Origin: Negativicutes bacterium
Lineage (GTDB): Bacteria; Bacillota; Negativicutes; JBAXTZ01
DNA: 64,000 nucleotides
Assembly: GCA_041666525.1 (NCBI GenBank)
Contig: JBAYGT010000001.1
Span: 196,157-260,156, forward strand
Direction: 5' to 3'
A program made the position numbers and the translations under genes. Of the stretch, positions 12,596-59,539 are shown in pieces (the stretch's first letter is position 1; the number at the start of each line of letters is the position of its first letter). The notes beneath the pieces were generated by a model that did not search any database, was not told the DNA's origin, and was given only the letters and a program-made list of their open reading frames with translations.

Positions 12596-12732
12596 GGTTT
12601 TCACCTCTTTCAAAAAAAATATAGCGGACACAAAACGTCCGCTACAATAACCTGTTCATATTAACCGTACACGTTTGCGTAATACGGTGAGAAGCGGACG
12701 CTCCTACTTTATTGTGAAAATAAAATCATAAT
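12596..12732 (-). promoter_or_regulatory. infC leader with terminator/antiterminator alternative (candidate L20-responsive attenuator)
   Basis: Minus-strand RNA: terminator AGCGGAC-GUUUUGU-GUCCGCU plus U8 (plus 12612..12643), immediately before the infC RBS. An upstream GCGUCCGCU can pair with the terminator 5' arm. Confidence 0.45.
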
Positions 12733-12820
12733 GGTGCCGAGGACCGGAATCGAACCGGTACGGAGATTACTCTCCGAGGGATTTTAAGTCCCTTGCGTCT
12801 GCCAGTTCCGCCACCCCGGC
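12733..12820 (-). tRNA. tRNA-Leu (anticodon UAA), CCA encoded
   Basis: Reverse complement gccggggtggcggaactggcagacgcaagggacttaaaatccc...ggttcgattccggtcctcggcacca; long variable arm. Confidence 0.85.
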
Positions 12821-12827
12821 ATTTTTG

Positions 12828-12901
12828 TGGAGGCGGCACCCAGATTTGAACTGGGGGTAAAGGATTTGCAGTCCTCTGCCTTACCACTTGGCTATGCCGC
12901 C
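12828..12901 (-). tRNA. tRNA-Cys (anticodon GCA), CCA encoded
   Basis: Reverse complement ggcggcatagccaagtggtaaggcagaggactgcaaatcc...ggttcaaatctgggtgccgcctcca. Confidence 0.85.
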
Positions 12902-12914
12902 ATACAGAAAATTT

Positions 12915-12989
12915 TGGAGCGGAAGACGAGATTCGAACTCGCGACCCTCGCCTTGGCAAGGCGATGCTCTACCACTGAGCTACTTCCGC
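12915..12989 (-). tRNA. tRNA-Gly (anticodon GCC), CCA encoded
   Basis: Reverse complement gcggaagtagctcagtggtagagcatcgccttgccaaggcgagggtcgcgagttcgaatctcgtcttccgctcca. Confidence 0.9.
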
Positions 12990-12998
12990 ATTTACAAA

Positions 12999-13074
<76 letters not shown>

Positions 13075-13081
13075 AAAAAAA

Positions 13082-13158
13082 TGGCGACCTCGAAGGGATT
13101 TGAACCCTCGATCTCCGCCGTGACAGGGCGGCATGTTAGACCACTACACCACGAGGCC
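13082..13158 (-). tRNA. tRNA-Asp (anticodon GUC), CCA encoded
   Basis: Reverse complement ggcctcgtggtgtagtggtctaacatgccgccctgtcacggcggagatcgagggttcaaatcccttcgaggtcgcca. Confidence 0.85.
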
Positions 13159-13883: not shown

Positions 13884-14462
13884 CTATTTAACAAGGTAAG
13901 CCTTGATAATTTTTTGGTCAACAACAGGTTTATCACCCCAGGCAGTAGTACAATTATCAATTTTTTGAACTACATCATAACCGCTGATTACTTCGCCAAA
14001 AATTGTGTGTTTCATATTCAGCCAGGTACAAGGCACCGTTGTAATAAAAAATTGGCTGCCGTTAGTATTTGGTCCGGCATTTGCCATCGCAATTAAACCC
14101 GGCTTATTGAACGTCACCGAAGATGAGCACTCGTCTTCAAATTTACCACCCCAAAGCGATTGGCCGCCACGGCCTGTAGCCGTTGGGTCACCGCCCTGAA
14201 TCATAAAATCTTTTATCACTCGATGGAAAATTGTACCGTCATAATAACCCTTTTCTACCAATCCGACAAAATTTTCTACCGTCTTTGGAGCGACAGTCGG
14301 AAAAAGTTTCAAAACTATCGTCCCTTGACTAGTTTCCAATGCAATTTTTATTTCTTTTGCCGGAGTTTGTTGATCTGTCGCCGAAACCTGTTGATTCATA
14401 AAAAAATATCCCCCTCCTATGATTGCAACAACTGCTGCTAAAATTAAAACGATTTTCTTCAT
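13884..14462 (-). CDS. ppiB: secreted cyclophilin-type peptidyl-prolyl cis-trans isomerase
   Basis: Signal peptide; [15 protein letters not shown]...GSQFFITT... cyclophilin motifs. Confidence 0.85.
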
Positions 14463-14637
14463 TATTCCTCCGTATTAAACCAAACACTATGAGGCAACGC
14501 CACAAATTATTATACTTGTAGCAACAGCTATTTGCAATAACTAAAACAACTATTCGACATACCTTTGCCACGTTGACAGACGACGTATAATTAGTTAGAG
14601 TCTGCTCCGTATGTTAAAAGATCAACAGGAGACATAA

Positions 14638-16389
14638 ATGGAAAATGTTAAATTCGTTGCTAATAAAGCAATAATAAAAGTTAAGTACCGTACTTTCGAA
14701 ACAGCTGACGAACTGTTATCCAGCAAATTATTTCACAGACTGCTGGCATCATGCATCAACGAGCTTGCCCATTGCCAATCGCCGCTACTGGAAATTTTCG
14801 CCGGCGAACACAAGTCGATCGAACGTCAGCGGCACTTCGTCCGTTTTTGCAAAAATCTTTATAAATTAAATTACCATGACGCAGCAAAAATTCAGGAGAA
14901 TTGTGAAACGTATATTGCCAATCAACGGACTCTGAATGATTTTGTCATGTATGTTTATGATTATTGGCGCAGCTATAATCGCTATATTATCTGCGATTCA
15001 GAAAATGACACCTTGGATCAACGCCCATACCGAACTTTCATGTCTACCGTAGAACAACTAAACCACCTTATTCGCGGCACTTACCGTGCATTATTGGAAA
15101 ATATCAATTGTCGGCCTCCGCGTGTTTATCGGCAAATCGTTGCCGGTGCCGAAGTATCGGTTATTGCAATACCTAATATTGTGCGCTTGCCGGGTAAGTA
15201 CGCTAAATTGAAGAGCGTGTTAGTGATCCGGCAAATTTTATTATCTCCACCCTTGATCGTTAATCAACCTAACAACAAACGAAAAGGTAAATTTGAAAAA
15301 GTACTTGTCAACCCGATACAATTGAACGAAATCAATCCAGGTGAATGGTTATGCTTTCCCGCGAAAGTTGGCAAACAAATAATTTTGATTTATTTTCATG
15401 AAAACTTTTTTGAATTGGGTATGTCGCTGTGCAATCTATTTGAGCTGGCTAGCGACGAAGATCTTACCACTCAGCCATCCGCTTTTTTCATGTACGGCGT
15501 TCCCGGTGAATCACTGTACCAATTCAGCGATCATCCAACCGTTTTTTTCGACGACGCTGAAAACAAAATATTGGTCGGCGCTTGTCCAAACAAAGACGAA
15601 TTTGGCTATTTTGGTTATCTGAAAAAAATGGTGTTGACGTTGCACAACATCCATGCAATGAAGCAAGGTTCACTACCATTTCATGGCGCACTGATAAAAA
15701 TTTCTTTCGACGGCAACAAAAAAACAGTTTTGATAATGGGCGACACCGGCACCGGAAAATCCGAAACTATCGAAGCCATTCGCGAAATCGGCGGTCAATC
15801 AATCAACTCGATGCAAATTATCGCTGACGATATGGGTTCTTTGGAAATTTCCGGAAATGCTGTTGTTGGCTTTGGCACGGAAATCGGCGCGTTTTTACGT
15901 ATCGATGATTTGCGTCCCGGTTATATATACGGAAAAATGGACCGTGCAATCATCATGAATCCTACGCAAACCAATGCGCGGGTTATTTACCCGGTAGCGA
16001 CTATTGAAGATATTATCGCTGCACACAGCATTGACTTTGTGCTCTACGCCAATAACTACGAACTGACTAATACAAGCACACCGGCAATTGAACGCTTTGA
16101 AGATGTTGGAACCGCATTAGCGGCATTTCGTTCCGGACAAGCAATGAGCAAAGGCACCACAAACCTTAGCGGAATGACTCATGCCTATTTTGCTAACGTC
16201 TTTGGTCCGGATCAATATCGTGAATTACATGATCCGTTATCTGATAAATACTTTACGTTTTTTTTCGACTGTGGTATTTATGTCGGGCAATTACGTACAC
16301 AACTCGGAATACCCGGTTTGGAATTTGACGGTCCAAAAAAATCAGCAAAAGCGCTGTTGGATTTAATTGCAACCCATAACCAAGATTAA
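14638..16389 (+). CDS. uncharacterised 583-aa protein with C-terminal HprK/PEPCK-like P-loop kinase-like domain
   Basis: RBS AGGAGA; residues ~355-440 FHGALIKISFDGNKKTVLIMGDTGTGKSETIEAIREIGG...IIADDMG mirror the HprK core (HG..v...G.GVLI.GDSG.GKSE.ALEL..RGH.LVADD). N-terminal ~340 aa is unassigned. Monocistronic: divergent from ppiB, followed by a strong terminator. Confidence 0.6.
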   Translation: MENVKFVANKAIIKVKYRTFETADELLSSKLFHRLLASCINELAHCQSPLLEIFAGEHKSIERQRHFVRFCKNLYKLNYHDAAKIQENCETYIANQRTLNDFVMYVYDYWRSYNRYIICDSENDTLDQRPYRTFMSTVEQLNHLIRGTYRALLENINCRPPRVYRQIVAGAEVSVIAIPNIVRLPGKYAKLKSVLVIRQILLSPPLIVNQPNNKRKGKFEKVLVNPIQLNEINPGEWLCFPAKVGKQIILIYFHENFFELGMSLCNLFELASDEDLTTQPSAFFMYGVPGESLYQFSDHPTVFFDDAENKILVGACPNKDEFGYFGYLKKMVLTLHNIHAMKQGSLPFHGALIKISFDGNKKTVLIMGDTGTGKSETIEAIREIGGQSINSMQIIADDMGSLEISGNAVVGFGTEIGAFLRIDDLRPGYIYGKMDRAIIMNPTQTNARVIYPVATIEDIIAAHSIDFVLYANNYELTNTSTPAIERFEDVGTALAAFRSGQAMSKGTTNLSGMTHAYFANVFGPDQYRELHDPLSDKYFTFFFDCGIYVGQLRTQLGIPGLEFDGPKKSAKALLDLIATHNQD

Positions 16390-16391
16390 AA

Positions 16392-16426
16392 CGAGCGGCC
16401 GACAAAATGTCGGCCGCTCGTTTTTA
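16392..16426. terminator. bidirectional rho-independent terminator
   Basis: cgagcggccgacaaaatgtcggccgctcg 11-bp stem plus T5. Confidence 0.8.
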
Positions 16427-17233
16427 TTAATTATCCGTTAAAAATACCACTTGAGTTTTTTTTAGCATATCGTTCTTTTGATTAGCCGCAAGAATAATAT
16501 CACCATCGCGGACACTAACCACGGCATTCCGGTTGAAATCACGTAATCTTACCGGCTTTATCATCAGCTGTTTAGCTCCGGCACGAAAACTCAATGAGCG
16601 CATTTCGTCAGCAGTATCATAATCACACATCCCGTTAGCAATCAGCAGATCTGTACTGATATAGCGGCTGGAATAAATGACTCTGCCATTTTCATCGTAA
16701 ATTACCGGAGTCATTGTGCGCTCAAGCTTCAATCCCCGGCAATCAACTACCAATCCGGTAACGGTACCTGTGCTAACATTAGATTGCGGCAACGGTATCG
16801 CTTGAGGCTGTTGACCGCCCCCGATACCGCTTGCCGGTATAACCGCGCTCGCAAGACTATCTGCACCATACAACCGCACCTGTAGCACAACGTGATAAAC
16901 ACCCTCGGCTGTCATATTTCCCTTAACAACTTTGAACCCCTTAAGAAAACCGACTACATTAGTTTTAATAACATCACTCGTCACCATTGCATCACGCACA
17001 GTAGTGGTTGCATCCAGACTAACACCCATTATTTGTTCCATCAAATTTCGTTGTCCGTCAACAACTGCAGCGCGGCGTGCTAAAATATTAGCTTGTGCTG
17101 GATTTACAGTGTTTTGCGGCGGCACTCCATAACCATCCGCCGAAACAACATCATCATCCCAACTGACATCCGCAAAACAGGTGGCCGAAAAAGCAACCAA
17201 AACCAAAATTAGCACAACAGCTAACTTTTTCAT
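16427..17233 (-). CDS. LPP20-like lipoprotein with C-terminal extra domain
   Basis: Signal peptide MKKLAVVLILVLVAFSATC (lipobox-like); N-domain resembles LPP20/FlgP-type lipoproteins. Confidence 0.5.
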   Translation of the reverse strand: MKKLAVVLILVLVAFSATCFADVSWDDDVVSADGYGVPPQNTVNPAQANILARRAAVVDGQRNLMEQIMGVSLDATTTVRDAMVTSDVIKTNVVGFLKGFKVVKGNMTAEGVYHVVLQVRLYGADSLASAVIPASGIGGGQQPQAIPLPQSNVSTGTVTGLVVDCRGLKLERTMTPVIYDENGRVIYSSRYISTDLLIANGMCDYDTADEMRSLSFRAGAKQLMIKPVRLRDFNRNAVVSVRDGDIILAANQKNDMLKKTQVVFLTDN

Positions 17234-17325
17234 ATACCCTCCAAAAAATTTAAGCGTCAAACCATAATCTATTGGTGATAGAAGTTCTGCGTTTTATTCT
17301 ACATTGTTTTTCATAATTATTCAAT

Positions 17326-41178: not shown

Positions 41179-42501
41179 ATGTTTAATAAATTACTAATTG
41201 CCAACCGTGGCGAAATCGCAGTACGAATAATCCGCGCTTGCCGGGACCTGGGAGTGCAATCGGTAGCGGTCTATTCTGCTGCCGATGTTGCCTCCTTGCA
41301 TGTGCTTTTAGCCGATGAAGCCCATTATATCGGACCGGCGGAAGCCAGTGAAAGCTATCTCAACATCGCCGCAATAATCGATGCCGCGAAAAAATCCGGG
41401 GCTGAAGCAATTCATCCCGGCTATGGTTTTTTATCAGAGAATGCGGCATTTGCCGCCGCCGTCACTGATGCCGGTTTAGCCTGGGTCGGGCCACCGGCTG
41501 ATACCATCAATCTTGTTGGAAATAAAGATTCTGCGCGCGCTGCGATGCGCGCCGCCGGACTACCGTTAATTCCCGGAAGCTCGGTGTTGTCCGGTCCGGA
41601 AGAAGCGCTCAGTGAAGCCGATCGGGTTGGTTATCCGGCAATTTTCAAGCCAGTTGCCGGCGGCGGCGGGCAGGGAATGTTTGTTGTAAACAACCGGGCA
41701 GAATTAATCGAGCGCTTAGACACAATCGGGCTTGCGAAAGACGCTTTCTTTGTTGAACGTTATGTTTCCGATGCCCGCCATATTGAAGTTCAAATTGTCG
41801 CCGACAGTTTTGGACACTGCATCCATCTGGGCGAACGTGAATGTTCATTGCAACGCCGGCATCAGAAAATTCTGGAGGAAGCGCCATCCAGCGCATTGAC
41901 CGATTCACTGCGCCAGGAAGTCGGGGCCTTGGCAACGACCGCTGCCAAAAGTATTGACTATACCAATGTTGGCACAGTCGAATTTATCTTCGACAAGCAA
42001 ACCCGTCAATTCTATTTTATGGAAATAAATCCGCGCATTCAGGTCGAACATGCGATTACTGAAATTATCACCGGATTTGATATCGTCCGCAGGCAAATTC
42101 GGATTGCCGCTAAAGAGCACTTCAATACCAAGCAGAGCAATATTGAATTCTATGGCCATTCACTGGAATGCCGGATAAATGCTGAGGATCCCGAAAACAG
42201 CTTCATGCCCAGCCCGGGAACCATTGATTACTATCATCAACCCGGCGGCCCCTTCGTCCGCATCGACAGCGGCGTAGCCGCAGGCTCAACAATCCCGATG
42301 TACTACGATTCACTTATTTCAAAATTAATCGTGTACGGACGTACCCGCGGCGATGCCATTCGCCACGCCAAGCGGGCACTTGCCGAATACAAGATTACCG
42401 GCATCAAAACAACTATTGGTCTGCACCGGCAGGTATTGGAAAATCCGGATTTCTGCCGCGGCAACACTTCTACCCGATTCATTGATGACTTCGTGTCTTA
42501 A
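41179..42501 (+). CDS. accC: biotin carboxylase (ATP-grasp; AccC or carboxylase A-subunit), stand-alone
   Basis: MFNKLLIANRGEIAVRIIRAC...; 440 aa biotin carboxylase with no BCCP/carboxyltransferase neighbours. Confidence 0.85.
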   Translation: MFNKLLIANRGEIAVRIIRACRDLGVQSVAVYSAADVASLHVLLADEAHYIGPAEASESYLNIAAIIDAAKKSGAEAIHPGYGFLSENAAFAAAVTDAGLAWVGPPADTINLVGNKDSARAAMRAAGLPLIPGSSVLSGPEEALSEADRVGYPAIFKPVAGGGGQGMFVVNNRAELIERLDTIGLAKDAFFVERYVSDARHIEVQIVADSFGHCIHLGERECSLQRRHQKILEEAPSSALTDSLRQEVGALATTAAKSIDYTNVGTVEFIFDKQTRQFYFMEINPRIQVEHAITEIITGFDIVRRQIRIAAKEHFNTKQSNIEFYGHSLECRINAEDPENSFMPSPGTIDYYHQPGGPFVRIDSGVAAGSTIPMYYDSLISKLIVYGRTRGDAIRHAKRALAEYKITGIKTTIGLHRQVLENPDFCRGNTSTRFIDDFVS

Positions 42502-54390: not shown

Positions 54391-55803
54391 CTAAAAGTAC
54401 AAATCCCGCACACCACTGTCGATTTTGCGCAATTCTTCCTCGACTTGGGCGCGCACCTCTGGTTTTCCGATTTCAGCCAGATGCCGGCTTATTGCCGCTT
54501 TGCCAATTATTCTTAGCTCATTATCAGCATAGTCGTTCAAATATTCTTCAAGCGTCAAAATCGCGTTCGGTTGACAGACGTTTTGAATTTCACCGGTTTT
54601 GGCAAGCTGCATAAACCGGTCGCCGGTGCGACCTTTGCGGTAACAAGCCGTGCAAAAGCTCGGCAGCCAGCCATCCGCTAACAGTTCTTTTAACACTTCG
54701 TTAGGTGTACGGTGATCTTCGACGGAAAATTGCTTGGTATCGCTGTCATCGGTACTGCTATAACCGCCAACCGCCGCACAGCTGCCGGCAGAAACTTGGG
54801 ACACACCGTACTGCAGCAGGTTATGCCGCATTGCCGAACTTTCGCGGGTGGATAGAATTATTCCGGTATACGGAACTGCCAAACGAATTATCGCCGTCAG
54901 TTTCATGAAATCCTCATCACTCACGGCATAAGGATATTCAGCCGTTTCCATCCCCAGTGCTTTTTTGATGCGCGGCACTGATATCGTGTGCGGGCCTACA
55001 CCAAATCGCCGTTCCATGTCCGCGGCGTGGAGAAACAGCCCCAACACTTCATAACGCCAATCATACAACCCAAACAACGCTCCAAAACCAACGTCATCAA
55101 TACCCGCTTGCATCGCCCGATGGTGCGCCGTGGTATGCCAGTCATAATCCGACTTCGGTCCGCCGCGATGATATTTGGCATAGCTGGCACGATGATACGT
55201 CTCCTGAAACAGGATATAGGTCCCGATTCCCGCCGCTTGTAATTTTTTGTAATCTTCAACGGTAGTCGCAGCAACATTGACATTACAACGGCGGATTGCG
55301 CCCTGATCCATTTTCACCGAATAAATAGTTTTTAGTGCCTCAATTACATAATCCACCGGACATTCGCCGGGATGCTCACCGGCTTCAACCGCCAACCGCT
55401 TATGTCCCATCGACTCAAGTACTTTTACTTCACTGACAATTTCCGCCATCGTCAGTTTGCGCCGGTTAAATTTATTGCGCACACAGTAACCGCAATAAGC
55501 ACAGTCATTAATACAGTGGTCGCTGATGTATAGTGGCGCAAATAACACCACCCGTTTGCCATAGATTTGTTTTTTGATTGCTCCGGCGGCGCTGAACATT
55601 TCTTTGGTTAATTCTTCGTTTTTGTTCTGAATCAGCGCAGCTACTTCCTCGATTGTCAGCCCTTTCGCCTGGCGCGCCTTTTGAATGATTGCACTTACCT
55701 GCTCATCCGATGCGCTTTCACCATTTTTTAACAGCTCAGCAATTTTTTCGTCACTGATAAATTCTACTGCTTCCCACTCAGGATTATTACTCCAATAGCT
55801 CAT
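54391..55803 (-). CDS. hydG: [FeFe]-hydrogenase maturase HydG (radical SAM tyrosine lyase)
   Basis: 470 aa; CINDCAYCGY radical SAM motif; C-terminal CTAC-X22-C (CX2CX22C) auxiliary cluster motif that separates HydG from ThiH. Confidence 0.85.
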   Translation of the reverse strand: MSYWSNNPEWEAVEFISDEKIAELLKNGESASDEQVSAIIQKARQAKGLTIEEVAALIQNKNEELTKEMFSAAGAIKKQIYGKRVVLFAPLYISDHCINDCAYCGYCVRNKFNRRKLTMAEIVSEVKVLESMGHKRLAVEAGEHPGECPVDYVIEALKTIYSVKMDQGAIRRCNVNVAATTVEDYKKLQAAGIGTYILFQETYHRASYAKYHRGGPKSDYDWHTTAHHRAMQAGIDDVGFGALFGLYDWRYEVLGLFLHAADMERRFGVGPHTISVPRIKKALGMETAEYPYAVSDEDFMKLTAIIRLAVPYTGIILSTRESSAMRHNLLQYGVSQVSAGSCAAVGGYSSTDDSDTKQFSVEDHRTPNEVLKELLADGWLPSFCTACYRKGRTGDRFMQLAKTGEIQNVCQPNAILTLEEYLNDYADNELRIIGKAAISRHLAEIGKPEVRAQVEEELRKIDSGVRDLYF

Positions 55804-55841
55804 ACTTCCCCCTTACGTTAATGAATAACTTGATTTAGTTT

Positions 55842-56861
55842 CTATTTCTCAAAAAGCGCCGGAACGCGGCCGGCATCCGCGATTATTTTCATCATCATTT
55901 CATGCGAACTTTCGGCGTCGTCACTGGTACCGGCCTTATTCGGATAAATTTCGTAGTTAGCTCGGTTGCTCTTCGGTGAAATGTTCGGCATAATGACGTT
56001 GGCCCCCCCCATCAACGCACGCACTCGCGCAGTTTTATCCAGCGTTCCCAACGCAGTGGTCGCCGGCAAATGCACAGTTGGCATCAGCAACCGTGAAACA
56101 GCCAACGCTTTGAGCGTCAACTCTACACTGCCGTTACTGTCAGCGCCAAGCGGTGTTGACGGATGAGCCACAAACGGCCCGATTCCCGCCATTTCCACCC
56201 CGGTTGCTTTGAGTAACAAAATATCTCTGGCAACATCGAAAATTGTCGTACCCGGCAACCCGATCATCATTCCAGAACCAATCCAAAATCCCAGCGATTT
56301 TAAATATTGCAAATTTTCCAACCGTTCTTTAAGCGTTGTATCAGGACGCAATTTGGCAAACAACTCCGCATTGGCTGTTTCGTGTTTCATAAGATAGCGG
56401 TCGGCGCCAGCGACTTTAAGCAGCTGGTATTCTTCTTTACGCAATATTCCCGCCGAAATTGTTATCGCAACATCAGCAAATTGTTTTATTGATCGCACGA
56501 TTGCCGCAATCCGTTCACCGTCAAAATAATTGTCTTCCCCAGCTTGCAGCACTATCGTTCCGTAACCTAGTTTGATACCGGTTTTTGCCGTATCAACTAT
56601 TTCCTGTGCACTGTAACGATAGCGGCTGATGTTCTTATTATCAGCACGCAGTCCGCAATACCAGCAATTATTTGCGCAGTAATTGGAGAATTCGATTATT
56701 CCGCGCAATTTCACCCGTTCGCCATGATATTTTTTTCGCACAGCATCCGCCGCCGCAAACAGCGCCCTTTTATCATCGCTTTCCACCATTAACAACCCGG
56801 CAATATCTTCTGCTGAACAAAACTGCTGTTTTACTTTTTCAATTAAATCTTTATTATTCAA
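55842..56861 (-). CDS. hydE: [FeFe]-hydrogenase maturase HydE (radical SAM)
   Basis: 339 aa; CANNCWYCG motif; BioB-like; sits between hydF and hydG. Confidence 0.8.
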   Translation of the reverse strand: MNNKDLIEKVKQQFCSAEDIAGLLMVESDDKRALFAAADAVRKKYHGERVKLRGIIEFSNYCANNCWYCGLRADNKNISRYRYSAQEIVDTAKTGIKLGYGTIVLQAGEDNYFDGERIAAIVRSIKQFADVAITISAGILRKEEYQLLKVAGADRYLMKHETANAELFAKLRPDTTLKERLENLQYLKSLGFWIGSGMMIGLPGTTIFDVARDILLLKATGVEMAGIGPFVAHPSTPLGADSNGSVELTLKALAVSRLLMPTVHLPATTALGTLDKTARVRALMGGANVIMPNISPKSNRANYEIYPNKAGTSDDAESSHEMMMKIIADAGRVPALFEK

Positions 56862-56879
56862 TCAAGCTCACCTCCACTT

Positions 56880-58094
56880 TCAGACGTCAATTATTTCCTG
56901 CAACTCCGGCCACGGCGACAGCGCCCGTTTTAATACGCCCTGCAGATAGCCGATGGCAATTCCGTAATTTACAATCGGAACTCCCGCTTCTTTGCACACC
57001 AGCATCCGCGACAACATATCGCGGCGATTACTCATACAGCCGCCACAGTGCAGTACCAATTTGTACTCACTCAGATTATCCGGAAATTCAGTACCAGCTA
57101 CGTGCTCGAACTGAACATCACCCTGCATATTTCTGATCCAGCGGGGAATTTTCACTGTACCGATATCATCTTCCACGCGATGATGGGTACAAGATTCGGC
57201 AATTAAAACCTTGTCACCGGACCGCAACCGGCCAAGAACGCTTGCCCCCTCGACAAAAGTCCGCAAATCACCTTTGAAACGTGCAAACAATATTGAAAAC
57301 GAAGTGAACAGCACCCCGGGCGGCGTATCTGCATCGGCTTTTAGAAACGCCTGCGAGTCAGTTATTACGATTCGCGGTTTCGCCTTTAATGATTGAATGC
57401 AGGCGCGTAATTCCCGTTCTTTAACGACATATGCCAGAGCATCACTATCGAGAATGTCCCGAATTATCTGCACCTGCGGCAAAATCAACCGTCCTTTAGG
57501 CGCTGCCAAATCAATCGGCGTCACCAGCACACAAACATCACCAGGATTAATCAAATCACCAACCAGTGTCTGCTGCTCCCACTTTGACGGCGCATGTTTT
57601 ATCAACAGCCTCTTTAAGGTGTTAATGCCGTTACCAGTCAATGAGCTTAAAAAAGCAACCGGTAAATCAGCATATTCGGCTGGAATAAGATTGTTTGCTA
57701 CTGCTCCGGTATCGATTTTATTCACAACAATTATTAGCGGTATCGTTAGTTTTTTGCACTGTTCAATAACAAGTTGTTCCGAACTGTCAAATTTGGAATC
57801 TACAGCTACAACCAAAATTGCAATTTCAGTTTTTCGTAATACTTCCAGTGATTTTTGCACCCGTAACCGTCCCAACTCGCCACTATCATCAATTCCCGCC
57901 GTGTCAATCAACATGACCGGACCAATTGGCAAGATTTCCATGGATTTATAAACCGGATCGGTAGTCGTTCCGGCAACGTCAGACACAATTGCCAGGTTTT
58001 GGCCGGTGAGCGCGTTTATCAGGCTGGATTTACCGGCATTGCGCTTGCCAAAAATCGCAATATGCAGCCGATTTCCTTTGGTTACATCAAACAT
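56880..58094 (-). CDS. hydF: [FeFe]-hydrogenase maturation GTPase HydF
   Basis: 404 aa; GKRNAGKSSLINALTG P-loop, DTAG, NKID; C-terminal CxH...HC cluster-binding region. Confidence 0.85.
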   Translation of the reverse strand: MFDVTKGNRLHIAIFGKRNAGKSSLINALTGQNLAIVSDVAGTTTDPVYKSMEILPIGPVMLIDTAGIDDSGELGRLRVQKSLEVLRKTEIAILVVAVDSKFDSSEQLVIEQCKKLTIPLIIVVNKIDTGAVANNLIPAEYADLPVAFLSSLTGNGINTLKRLLIKHAPSKWEQQTLVGDLINPGDVCVLVTPIDLAAPKGRLILPQVQIIRDILDSDALAYVVKERELRACIQSLKAKPRIVITDSQAFLKADADTPPGVLFTSFSILFARFKGDLRTFVEGASVLGRLRSGDKVLIAESCTHHRVEDDIGTVKIPRWIRNMQGDVQFEHVAGTEFPDNLSEYKLVLHCGGCMSNRRDMLSRMLVCKEAGVPIVNYGIAIGYLQGVLKRALSPWPELQEIIDV

Positions 58095-58159: not shown

Positions 58160-59539
58160 CTAGCCCGGGCGGATAATTTTTTCGACACTAAAAACGGTTT
58201 CAAATTCGTCATCGCTGACGAATTTGCCGGCAATCAGCGCTTCGCGCGCTGAAATATTTTCTGCAAGCATCTTTTTGACCAGCTCTGCCGCGGCCGCGTA
58301 ACCGATTTGCGGTACTATCGCAGTTATCAACGCTGCTGTTTGCTCCAAATTATCCAAACAACGATCACCGTTAGCCTGAATGCCGCTGATACATCTGTCA
58401 GTAAACAACTTTATCGCATTATTCAATACATTAATACCATTCAAAAGATTGTCGGCTATTAACGGCAGGAACGCGTTCAATTCCAGCTGTCCGCCCTGCG
58501 CTGCATAGGTAATTGCCGTATCGGCCGCAATCATCTGCCAGGACGCCTGGGTTAATGCTTCAGTCATAACCGGATTGACTTTTCCCGGCATGATTGACGA
58601 TCCGGCCTGCATATCCGGCAAGCGCAACTCACCGATTCCGGCACGCGGGCCGCTGGCGAGCAGTCGGATGTCGGCGGCAATCTTCGCCATGTTAACTGCA
58701 CAGGTTTTCAGGATACCGGATACTTCAACAAATACATCGCAATTTTGGGTAGCGTCGATCAGATTTTCTTTTCGTGCCAATCCAATGCCGGTTATTCCAC
58801 GCAACTGCTCGATAACCGTAAATATATATTTGCGTTCGGCATTAATACCGGTACCAATTGCCGTACCGCCAAGATTGACTTCGCGCAATCGTTCTTCGGT
58901 TTTATACAACCGCCAGCGGTCACGCGCCACGGCCTCCGCCCATGCACCAAACTCAGACCCCAATGTCATCGGTACCGCATCTTGCAGCTGGGTACGCCCA
59001 ACTTTTAGCACTCCGGCAAATTCACGTTCTTTAGCTTGCAGCGCGCCTTGCAGTTTCGCACAATTTTCCGACAATTCGGTAATCAACCTTATCGCCGCTA
59101 TTCGAAGCGCGGTTGGAAAAGTATCATTGGTCGATTGCGACATATTAACATCGCGTAGCGGCGAAACAGCATCGTAAGCGCCGCGTGGTTTTCCCAACAA
59201 CTCCAATGCCCGGTTAGCGATAACCTCGTTAACATTCATGTTGAGCGAGGTTCCGGCGCCGCCCTGCAACGCGTCGACAATAATATGTTCGAACCACCTT
59301 CCTGCTGCCAGCTCTTGTGCAGCGCGCACGATCGCAGTCCCGATTTCCGTTGACAATCCCCCGCTATACATGTTAGCTTCGGCGCAGGCTGCTTTTACCT
59401 CGGCATAAGCACGGATTAACTCACGGTGCGGGATTCGGCCACTGATAGCAAAGTTTTCCCGCGCCCGTACGCTATGAATACCGTATAGCGCCGTATCTGG
59501 CAATTGCAGTTCTCCAATAAAATCACTTTCTATTCGCAT
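58160..59539 (-). CDS. aspartate ammonia-lyase/fumarase-family protein (hyd-operon-associated)
   Basis: 459 aa; GSSIMPGKVNPV signature; lies between the TM1266-like gene and hydF. Confidence 0.8.
   Translation of the reverse strand: MRIESDFIGELQLPDTALYGIHSVRARENFAISGRIPHRELIRAYAEVKAACAEANMYSGGLSTEIGTAIVRAAQELAAGRWFEHIIVDALQGGAGTSLNMNVNEVIANRALELLGKPRGAYDAVSPLRDVNMSQSTNDTFPTALRIAAIRLITELSENCAKLQGALQAKEREFAGVLKVGRTQLQDAVPMTLGSEFGAWAEAVARDRWRLYKTEERLREVNLGGTAIGTGINAERKYIFTVIEQLRGITGIGLARKENLIDATQNCDVFVEVSGILKTCAVNMAKIAADIRLLASGPRAGIGELRLPDMQAGSSIMPGKVNPVMTEALTQASWQMIAADTAITYAAQGGQLELNAFLPLIADNLLNGINVLNNAIKLFTDRCISGIQANGDRCLDNLEQTAALITAIVPQIGYAAAAELVKKMLAENISAREALIAGKFVSDDEFETVFSVEKIIRPG

Follow-up and report, generated by a model that had tools for sequence, protein, structure and literature searches.

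The gene at positions 14638..16389 of the window (the whole 64,000-nucleotide stretch of Negativicutes DNA analyzed here) encodes a protein with the predicted fold of a phosphoenolpyruvate carboxykinase (PEPCK). This putative PEPCK-fold enzyme is very probably catalytically competent. Based on the sequence and the structural model, we favor, with modest confidence, a divergent PEPCK-type enzyme whose predicted reaction is an oxaloacetate (OAA)/PEP-type interconversion.

The gene and its flanking elements

The open reading frame reported in the earlier note, on the forward strand and encoding 583 amino acids, proved exact (Table 1). The protein is identical in independent JGI, ENA and Logan assemblies of a Negativicutes MAG, and the family to which it belongs comprises more than 4,200 homologous clusters. 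We therefore conclude that the gene is real and is not a chance open reading frame.

The divergent ppiB neighbor, the promoter region and the strong bidirectional terminator that had been described around the gene were all found. The intergenic region between the ppiB-like gene and the PEPCK-like gene is 175 bp. The promoter-like site in it is a consensus match only, and sites of that kind number 8 in the region compared with 6.0 ± 2.6 in shuffles. There was no riboswitch, leader or other Rfam element upstream of the PEPCK-like gene. With its own promoter and terminator, the gene would be expressed alone, as is typical of a housekeeping gene of central metabolism.

Table 1. Positions in the window of the gene, its flanking elements and the regions and motifs of its product.
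Feature	Position	Strand	Remarks
Pro_isomerase (ppiB-like) gene	13884..14462	-	upstream, opposite strand
Promoter-like site TTGACA-17 nt-TAGAGT	14573..14601	+	10/12 consensus matches
Ribosome-binding site AGGAGA	14627..14632	+	5 nt before ATG; from direct reading of the sequence
CDS, 583-aa PEPCK-like protein	14638..16389	+	ATG start; stop codon included
Residues 1-110, family-specific N-terminal extension	14638..14967	+	β-hairpin and helices; poorly conserved across the family; weak globin-like fold matches
Residues 111-345, PEPCK N-terminal-domain-like region	14968..15672	+	'NLFELA..D..KPD' segment aligns with PckA 'NMFIRPSDEELAGFKPD'
'PCK-specific domain' Y324-F-G-Y-L-K329-K330	15607..15627	+	hhalign with E. 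coli PckA Y207-G-G-E-M-K212-K213
H349-G350	15682..15687	+	hhalign with PckA H232; H349 in 79/88
Kinase-1a/Walker A P-loop G368-D-T-G-T-G-K374-S375-E376	15739..15765	+	PckA G248-L-S-G-T-G-K254-T255-T; conserved in 79-82 of 88
Kinase-2 A396-D397-D398-M-G400	15823..15837	+	PckA G-D268-D269; matches PMC2684135 Table 2 in motif and order
E415-I-G417-A-F419-L-R421	15880..15900	+	spacing equal to PckA E282-G-G284-C-Y286-A-K288
N446-A-R448-V-I-Y-P452	15973..15993	+	hhalign with PckA N331-T-R333-V-S-Y-P (substrate-binding Arg)
Flexible conserved loop M503-S-K505-G-T-T508...G512	16144..16173	+	hhalign with PckA 'TAKLAGTERG' lid region
Bidirectional intrinsic terminator	16388..16424	.	perfect 17-bp stem, 10 G-C pairs, flanking A and T runs; scored as terminator on both strands

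Fold and homology

The modeled product has a full two-domain PEPCK fold with a variable helical extension of ~110 residues, and would be a cytoplasmic enzyme. We compared an AlphaFold model of the protein (pLDDT 81.5, pTM 0.80) with known structures using Foldseek. The top 50 matches were all PEPCKs (E ~1e-12, probability 1.0), and the best were full two-domain PEPCKs, that is, an N-terminal domain together with the P-loop-containing C-terminal domain. Matches of the HprK structural type spanned 125-149 residues only and scored about half as high. The picture in the earlier note of an HprK-like core joined to an unplaceable N-terminal region of 340 residues does not hold: in the model that region is the PEPCK N-domain, and only residues ~1-110 are a family-specific extension.

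Homology to ATP-PEPCKs was apparent at the level of sequence profiles. Alignment of the family profile with nine ATP-PEPCKs by hhalign gave a probability of 95.1% (E 3.4e-8), with the core of the query (residues 256-552) aligned to PckA 140-439. No curated family model in Pfam or NCBIfam accepts the full-length protein. It scored 16 bits with PF01293 (gathering cut-off 26.5) and 22.5 with NCBIfam NF006821 (PRK09344 models; cut-off 369), and the best-scoring family members reached 25.6 bits in the Pfam and 28 bits in the NCBIfam PEPCK models. These sub-threshold matches were consistent and lay only around the catalytic motifs. The matches to Hpr_kinase_C (12.7 bits versus a cut-off of 33.3, below the curated HprK model) and TIGR00679 were also weak. 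Searches of PDB sequences with the protein and two family profiles (phmmer/hmmsearch) gave nothing significant. The isolated His-Gly/P-loop/ADD segment found only generic P-loop NTPases (midasin, ABC, RFC), indicating that this motif string alone is not diagnostic of HprK or PEPCK.

Conservation of catalytic motifs

Across the family, the residues aligned with the catalytic set of PEPCK are conserved. In 88 family members, down to 22% identity, conservation covered the positions aligned with PckA Y207, K212/K213, H232, the P-loop Lys and Ser/Thr, D268/D269, K288, R333 and the lid-like loop. The motif string first noticed in the sequence ('FHGALIKISFDGNKKTVLIMGDTGTGKSETIEAIREIGG...IIADDMG') is present as H349-G350, G368-E376 and A396-G400, and the signature regions of Aich & Delbaere (PMC2684135) were found as YFGYLKK, GTGKS and ADD.

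In the PCK-specific motif, defined as Y-x-G-[E/N]-...-K-K (PMC2684135 Table 2), Y324 is conserved in 84/88, K329 in 85/88 and K330 in 78/88; G326, which aligns with PckA G209, falls in the same range of 78-85 of 88. The E/N position (YGGE or YGGN) is Tyr here (Y327, 78/88), and the family-wide form is YFGY[LMVI]KK. The kinase-1a G-x-G-K-T motif is found as GTGKS375 (76-81 of 88 members), in the family-wide form D[ST]G[AT]GKSE, and Ser for Thr also occurs in the PCKs of S. bovis and L. casei (GKST; PMC2684135 Table 2). In kinase-2, where variation at the x of x-D-D is allowed (PMC2684135), D397 and D398 are kept in 83 and 82 of the 88 members; this equivalence comes from motif and order, the hhalign register being locally shifted.

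E415 (86/88), G417 (88/88) and R421 (76/88) probably form the counterpart of PckA E282..K288, as judged from spacing with no confident alignment. N446 and R448 are present in 81 and 80 members, and the lid-like loop has the consensus AKGTTxExG, with pLDDT <50 for residues 506-516. We take H232 to be a Mn2+ ligand in PEPCK, and H232, R333 and R65 of E. coli PckA to be Mn2+/substrate residues.

The N-domain-like region also contains conserved residues. R165 (77/88) and N213-K214-R215 (R215, 78/88) are candidate equivalents of PckA R65, although three profile alignments gave three different N-domain registers and hhalign had low confidence there. Further conserved arginines in the protein as a whole are R111, R115, R150 and R436. 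The extra conserved Arg and the N-terminal extension could indicate a larger or different anionic substrate.

The nucleotide-pocket motifs of known PEPCKs were missing from the 583-residue protein. There is no RX5TR, the motif of the ATP pocket (in the alignment, 'GPKKSAKALL' stands opposite PckA 'GKRISIKDTR'), and the GTP-pocket motif F/YxxxF/Y was not seen. Such losses would fit a PEPCK-fold protein that is catalytically inactive or has a purely regulatory role, sensing a nucleotide or metabolite and perhaps signaling through the globin-like N-terminal helical extension. We consider this highly improbable: purifying selection acts on nearly all of the catalytic constellation down to 22% identity, which is unusual for pseudo-enzymes, there is no conserved partner gene, and the extension is the least conserved part of the protein, with no family-wide conserved His or Cys.

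Comparison with known PEPCKs and HprK

Three PEPCK classes are recognized, using ATP, GTP or PPi (PMC8100219). The protein resembles ATP-PEPCK (PckA; PF01293; E. coli PckA, T. cruzi 1ii2, T. thermophilus 2pc9) in profile-profile homology (95%), in being encoded by a usually stand-alone gene, and in the order of its motifs (Y..KK, His, kinase-1a, kinase-2 DD, E..G..[YF]..[KR], N.R..YP, lid-like AK..GT.E.G and F.A..FG). However, the two are only ~14% identical, and the protein scores under the Pfam and NCBIfam cut-offs. It is ~110 residues longer at the N-terminus, apparently without the last ~75 residues of PckA, has Y for E of YGGE, GKSE for GKTT and A/F-DD for G-DD. Its helix from the P-loop to DD is longer, and it has no RX5TR adenine pocket.

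Atypical PCKs of Lactobacillales (Streptococcus bovis BAE46992, Lactobacillus casei ZP_00386357) share with the family two unusual motif variants, 'YFG..LKK' and 'GKS', as well as an ATP pocket that is not fully conserved (PMC2684135 Table 2). The family is set apart from them by their published motifs, YFGE-LKK, SGSGKST and VLHDD, which none of 315 family proteins has. Furthermore, those PCKs have 24-25% BLAST identity to other PCKs (PMC2684135), whereas BLAST with PckA does not detect the family.

Unlike GTP-PEPCK (PF00821; 9e32, rat cPEPCK, M. tuberculosis Pck), the protein has no YGGN..GKK, no reactive-Cys P-loop (SACGKTN) and no F/YxxxF/Y guanine pocket. PPi-PEPCK (PEP carboxytransphosphorylase; P. 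freudenreichii 8e1u) is ~1,126 residues long, a size and architecture that the 583-residue protein does not have; no sequence similarity to it was detected, and its fold score was below those of ATP- and GTP-PEPCK.

The protein is unlikely to be the novel protein kinase that had been proposed, and a PEPCK-type reaction on a small molecule is the better reading. In an HprK/P-like protein serine kinase/phosphorylase, or in a protein kinase of another kind, the N-terminal half would act as a substrate-recognition module. The P-loop helix (GDSGAGKSETLEAL...ADD) does resemble that of HprK/P (PF07475), and the spacing 'GD(S/T)G(A/T)GKSE..E A(I/L)..(21-23 aa)..ADD' appears closer to HprK than to PckA. 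The weak Hpr_kinase_C and TIGR00679 matches point the same way. However, Y..KK, the R333 equivalent and the lid-like loop, which tell PEPCK from HprK, are present and conserved, as is the PEPCK N-domain, and this makes a protein kinase improbable; to our knowledge, HprK has none of these features. Conversely, the protein has no LEIRGLG-type signature and, as noted earlier, no HprK N-domain and a size well above that of HprK/P (583 versus ~310 residues overall); what aligns with its N-terminal half is the PEPCK N-domain. The short, low-scoring HprK structural matches and the Hpr_kinase_C score also count against a protein kinase. There is no PTS context: a Pfam scan of the window ORFs of at least 150 residues (HPr, ~90 residues, is below that size) showed no PTS or HPr domain, and no PTS or HPr gene was found in the neighborhoods of homologues examined. 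The family is abundant in phyla such as Omnitrophota and Planctomycetota, which often lack a PTS.

Distribution and gene neighborhoods

The family is widespread in anaerobic bacteria and some lactobacilli. Carriers include Omnitrophota, Atribacterota, Anaerolineae, environmental Bacteroidales, Spirochaetota, anammox Planctomycetota and heterofermentative Limosilactobacillus. Identity between phyla is 58-65%, and on this measure the family is evidently under strong constraint.

The gene is monocistronic in the window and in Spirochaetota, Negativicutes and Limosilactobacillus, and comparison of neighborhoods confirmed the earlier impression that context gives no functional hint. In 80 genome loci, neighbors were conserved only within Bacteroidales (a YqgE-like gene, a 2-oxoacid dehydrogenase E1-like gene, ApbE and holA), which is lineage synteny, and no neighbor was common to several phyla. 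In ten other phyla, the tightly linked upstream genes were unrelated to one another.

Two paralogues have more suggestive surroundings. P0175, a divergent paralogue (~32% identity), lies in a glycan/nucleotide-sugar cluster, overlaps the stop codon of an NTP_transferase gene and is translationally coupled to that nucleotidyltransferase, indicating that family members need not all be carboxykinases. P0308 is near a PEP-mutase/phosphonopyruvate-decarboxylase-type cluster.

Proposed function

We predict that a catalytic divalent metal is bound at a Mn2+-type site (K330/H349/D398), that the phosphoryl donor sits on the P-loop, and that the conserved arginines hold a small 2-oxo acid whose enolate or carboxylate oxygen would accept or give up the phosphoryl group. 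The most likely reaction would be oxaloacetate + phosphoryl donor <-> PEP + CO2, making the family a fourth, very divergent PEPCK lineage. The donor is uncertain: ATP-PEPCKs have an RX5TR motif that is missing here, and the helix at the P-loop is HprK/P-like.

The same fold and catalytic residues would fit equally well a small-molecule kinase acting on a substrate other than OAA/PEP (for example, a different 2-oxo acid, a hydroxy acid, a sugar acid or some phosphorylated intermediate), with two-metal phosphoryl transfer and no decarboxylation. The departures from PEPCK signatures (Y327 for E/N, GKSE, no RX5TR), the extra conserved Arg and the family-specific extension are consistent with this possibility, as are the paralogues, with P0175 suggesting a kinase followed by a nucleotidyltransferase. 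We nevertheless think it rather unlikely, if still an appreciable possibility. The OAA/CO2-pocket positions of PckA (Y207, G209, K212, K213 and R333) are all kept, as Y324, G326, K329, K330 and R448. In addition, the main clade has none of the operon partners expected for a specialized pathway, its conservation between phyla is typical of core metabolism, and the paralogues whose surroundings are suggestive share only 27-32% identity with the window protein.

Within the carboxykinase reading, the HprK-like helix and the missing adenine pocket hint at a mode of donor or nucleotide recognition different from those of the ATP and GTP classes. HprK/P works with PPi and Pi as well. It is conceivable, but doubtful, that the family is a fourth, previously unrecognized PEPCK class that uses, for example, PPi, polyphosphate or NTPs with relaxed specificity, and that it is the working (perhaps only) PEPCK of many of the uncultivated anaerobes listed above and of heterofermentative Limosilactobacillus.

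PEPCK acts at the PEP-pyruvate-oxaloacetate node, the point at which carbon is directed to gluconeogenesis, to anaplerosis or to succinate or propionate fermentation. If the protein is a true carboxykinase, it would fill apparent gaps in carbon metabolism in many uncultivated anaerobes and Limosilactobacillus, and would also stand between PEPCK and HprK/P as an evolutionary intermediate. If it has another substrate, the PEPCK scaffold would gain a new activity. Cultured, genetically tractable carriers (L. fermentum, with protein AYP99509.1, and related species) make a direct test of either possibility feasible.

Database names of family members

Since the family falls below every curated model, annotation and metabolic reconstruction either miss it ('hypothetical protein', or wrongly 'EcfA2') or call it PEPCK without evidence. 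We found no biochemical study in the literature on the family, on PEPCK-like or HprK-like orphan families, or on Limosilactobacillus PEPCK. Some members are automatically named 'phosphoenolpyruvate carboxykinase' in GenBank, NCBI and UniRef, for example throughout Limosilactobacillus, so the resemblance to PEPCK is already known to annotation pipelines; no passing curated model stands behind the NCBI and UniRef label. The JGI label 'energy-coupling factor transporter ATP-binding protein EcfA2' is a mis-annotation based on the P-loop only.

Homology of the window protein to PEPCK

The window protein, a 583-aa product, is a homologue of phosphoenolpyruvate carboxykinase (PEPCK) that has the whole two-domain fold, as shown by a predicted structure and profile comparison. 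We built an AlphaFold2 model on a 44-sequence alignment (mean pLDDT 81.5, pTM 0.80), and each of the 50 best Foldseek matches was an ATP- or a GTP-PEPCK (E 2e-12 to 1e-9, probability 1.0, TM 0.35-0.49, 371-532 aligned columns). Because the C-terminal domain (346-583) has only 238 residues, these alignments necessarily take in much of the N-terminal half, the 340-aa region that the earlier note could not place. In profile-profile comparison with E. coli PckA (ATP-type) alone, residues 265-378 aligned with PckA 149-258 (E 4.8e-4); a broader family profile aligned 111-580 with PckA 10-465 (82% probability). When the comparison was with nine diverse ATP-PEPCKs combined in one profile, the probability was 95.1% (E 3.4e-8), and the alignment was confident in a core that pairs 256-552 with PckA 140-439.

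Curated models did not accept the protein. The best Pfam match was PEPCK_ATP (16 bits versus a cut-off of 26.5), and the best NCBIfam match, a PEPCK subfamily model covering residues 313-419, reached 22.5 bits versus 369. Searches of PDB sequences with the window protein, two family profiles and the motif segment alone gave no specific match, so the motif string is not diagnostic on its own.

The earlier note had seen an HprK/PEPCK-like P-loop kinase core here and suggested a novel protein or small-molecule kinase. The helix between the P-loop and DD is longer than in canonical PEPCKs, and this helix and 'GDSGAGKSETLEAL...ADD' resemble HPr kinase/phosphorylase (HprK/P). However, Hpr_kinase_C scored 12.7 bits versus a cut-off of 33.3, there was no PTS/HPr gene (nor a canonical PEPCK gene) among the scanned window ORFs of at least 150 aa, and the homology to ATP-PEPCKs spans both domains. 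We consider an HprK-like protein kinase quite improbable.

Active-site residues

Purifying selection acts strongly on the residues that match the catalytic and metal-binding set of PEPCK. Four PEPCK signature regions have been defined by Aich & Delbaere (PMC2684135): the PCK-specific domain (Y[AG]GE-MKK in ATP and YGGNxLLGKK in GTP enzymes), kinase-1a (SGTGKTT), kinase-2 (xxGDD) and, for ATP, the nucleotide pocket RX5TR. The window protein has counterparts of kinase-1a and kinase-2, which hold the Walker A and ADD motifs noticed earlier, and a variant of the PCK-specific domain (see table); it lacks RX5TR. Compared with PckA, H349 (in the His-Gly motif of the earlier note) aligns with H232, N446-A-R448-V-x-Y-P with N331-T-R333-V-S-Y-P, a loop 'AKGTTxExG' (disordered at 506-516 in the model) with 'TAKLAGTERG', 'YFANPFG' with 'FSACFGA', and 'VG..RT' with 'LVNTGW'; E415-x-G417-x-F419-x-R421 resembles E282-x-G284-x-Y286-x-K288 by identical spacing, not by confident alignment.

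Among 88 members reaching down to 22% identity, the conserved residues were Y324 (84/88), K329 (85/88), K330 (78/88), H349 (79/88), K374 (79/88), D397 (83/88), D398 (82/88), E415 (86/88), G417 (88/88), R421 (76/88) and R448 (80/88). Across the whole family the motifs take the forms YFGY[LMVI]KK, D[ST]G[AT]GKSE and [AF]DDMG. The PCK-specific motif has Tyr where ATP and GTP PEPCKs have Glu or Asn, and the P-loop has GKSE whereas canonical PEPCKs have GKTT or GKTN. Candidates for the equivalent of substrate-binding R65 are R165 (77/88) and R215 (78/88, in N-K-R-x-G-x-F); the N-domain alignments disagree with one another, and secondary-structure reasoning favours R215.

We predict with high confidence that the window protein is a catalytically competent PEPCK-fold enzyme; with the active-site set conserved, a non-catalytic sensor is the least likely reading, with very little probability. 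The enzyme would depend on metal and transfer a phosphoryl group to, or take it from, the enolate or carboxylate of a small oxo acid. Most likely this is the PEPCK reaction, although which phosphoryl donor takes part is uncertain. Its physiological substrates are, on balance, predicted to be oxaloacetate and phosphoenolpyruvate (PEP), or a compound very like them. The leading alternative, that the same catalytic machinery acts on a different small substrate, is possible and distinctly less probable. Reviews recognise ATP-, GTP- and PPi-PEPCKs (PMC8100219). Our literature searches gave no paper that deals with this family, whose interest would clearly grow if it proved to be a fourth class with a distinct donor.

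Family and genomic context

The family is large, ancient, strongly constrained, context-free and just outside curated PEPCK models. A word-indexed search gave 4,207 or more clusters (90% identity); an exhaustive search of 50%-identity representatives gave 510 relatives, of which 127 lie below 1e-30 and the most distant have about 22-25% identity. Almost all members are 560-600 aa. Carriers include environmental Bacteroidales/Rikenellaceae, Spirochaetota, Omnitrophota, Anaerolineae, Atribacterota, Marinimicrobia, Desulfobacteraceae, Victivallales, Planctomycetota (including Brocadiaceae), Actinomycetota, Bipolaricaulota, Anaerococcus and Negativicutes, among them Lucifera butyrica LUCI_1581. 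The family is also found throughout Limosilactobacillus, a cultured genus. Main-clade proteins are 58-65% identical across phyla; the four named main-clade members that were compared share 52-53% identity with the small clade to which the window protein belongs.

The family is neither curated nor characterised. The resemblance to PEPCK is not new, in that some pipelines label members 'PEPCK' by weak similarity; source records say 'hypothetical protein', 'phosphoenolpyruvate carboxykinase' or, wrongly, 'EcfA2'. On PF01293 the Limosilactobacillus members labelled PEPCK reach just 21.6-25.6 bits, and NCBIfam PEPCK models with cut-offs of 369-806 give them 15.6-17.7 bits, so these names are not curated assignments. 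The name 'energy-coupling factor transporter ATP-binding protein EcfA2' (JGI/IMG; members P0011, P0012, P0042, P0060 and others) is an annotation error that stems from the P-loop alone.

L. fermentum DR9 'plasmid unnamed2' (252 kb), which carries a member, resembles chromosomal housekeeping DNA (inorganic pyrophosphatase, msrB, RarA). Chromosomal pckA genes turned up in the plasmid collection because several of its records are whole chromosomes labelled as plasmids (for example NZ_OL790696.1, 4.8 Mb; NZ_CP084075.1, 2.1 Mb; CP125156.1, 5.4 Mb).

Genomic context gives no functional hint, as the earlier note held: no neighbour was shared among 33 non-Bacteroidota loci, and neighbours common to about 40 Bacteroidales loci reflect lineage synteny. 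Tightly linked upstream genes are mutually unrelated (PKD protein, deacetylase, ThrRS, PLP enzyme, Fe-ADH, oxidoreductase, GH18, ArgG, aldehyde dehydrogenase). Spirochaetota, Lucifera and Limosilactobacillus likewise carry the gene on its own. Divergent subfamilies have scattered contexts (AzlCD; formate-THF ligase upstream with NDK downstream; pseudouridine synthase). The sole suggestive case among them is P0175 (L095:5231-7764; about 32% identical to the window protein), which overlaps at its start with the stop codon of an NTP_transferase gene in a nucleotide-sugar/glycan cluster (DegT aminotransferase, epimerases, GT2, TPP enzyme, HMGL-like enzyme, HAD phosphatase). Judging by this arrangement, some paralogues may phosphorylate a precursor for subsequent nucleotidylation. 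A second paralogue, P0308 (L092/L093), has a PEP-mutase/TPP-decarboxylase cluster of phosphonate type at a distance of 5-6 kb.

The gene and its surroundings

The gene is monocistronic, with its own promoter-like site and terminator, and its reading frame, divergent ppiB neighbour and bidirectional terminator are as first described; the hairpin scores as a terminator on both strands. No Rfam element was found upstream. The identical protein is called for a Negativicutes MAG in the independent assemblies of JGI, ENA and Logan (NCBI title 'MAG: hypothetical protein WCV63_01140 [Negativicutes bacterium]').

Features of the gene, its product (residue numbers) and the window
Feature	Position	Strand	Detail
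Isomerase gene (ppiB)	13884-14462		cyclophilin-type peptidyl-prolyl isomerase, upstream
Promoter-like site	14573-14601	+	TTGACA-17-TAGAGT, within 175-bp spacer to isomerase gene
Ribosome-binding site	14627-14632	+	AGGAGA, within the spacer
PEPCK-like gene	14638-16389	+	ATG at 14638, stop ends at 16389
Hairpin	16388-16424	both	perfect 17-bp, directly 3' of stop codon, A and T runs on flanks
PCK-specific domain			Y324-F-G-Y-L-K329-K330
His-Gly			H349-G350
Walker A			G368-DTGTGKSE-376
Kinase-1a			T370-G-T-G-K374-S375-E376
Kinase-2			I-I-A396-D397-D398 (ADD 396-398)
L20-leader-like element	12610-12715		48 bits, under Rfam gathering score 58.7
Five tRNA genes	12732-13158	-	Leu-TAA, Cys-GCA, Gly-GCC, Phe-GAA, Asp-GTC
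Downstream gene	16427-17260	-	277 aa, convergent
Biotin carboxylase	41179-42501	+	Biotin_carb_N / CPSase_L_D2 / Biotin_carb_C
Hydrogenase maturase-like genes	54391-58094	-	[FeFe] type
Lyase	58160-59539	-	aspartase/fumarase class II

The downstream gene encodes a protein with a hydrophobic signal-peptide-like N-terminus and no Pfam match, and it also adjoins the family member at L001, an 87%-identical Bacillota MAG locus. In its gene content the window is an ordinary stretch of chromosome (cell-division and PBP genes, fmt/def, fructose-bisphosphate aldolase, infC-rpmI-rplT, a tRNA cluster, rplM-rpsI, RelA/SpoT, RecJ, AspRS/HisRS, glutamate dehydrogenase, stand-alone biotin carboxylase, HydE/G/F maturases and an aspartase/fumarase-type lyase). 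The tight tRNA cluster is directly upstream of infC-rpmI-rplT. The maturase-like genes (HydF with dimerisation and tetramerisation domains, and two radical-SAM proteins, of which one has a BATS domain) and the adjoining lyase fit a strictly anaerobic fermenter. The biotin carboxylase gene, on the strand opposite to its neighbours and beside the glutamate dehydrogenase gene, could encode a subunit of pyruvate or acetyl-CoA carboxylase, and bears on the same PEP-pyruvate-oxaloacetate node as the PEPCK-like gene.
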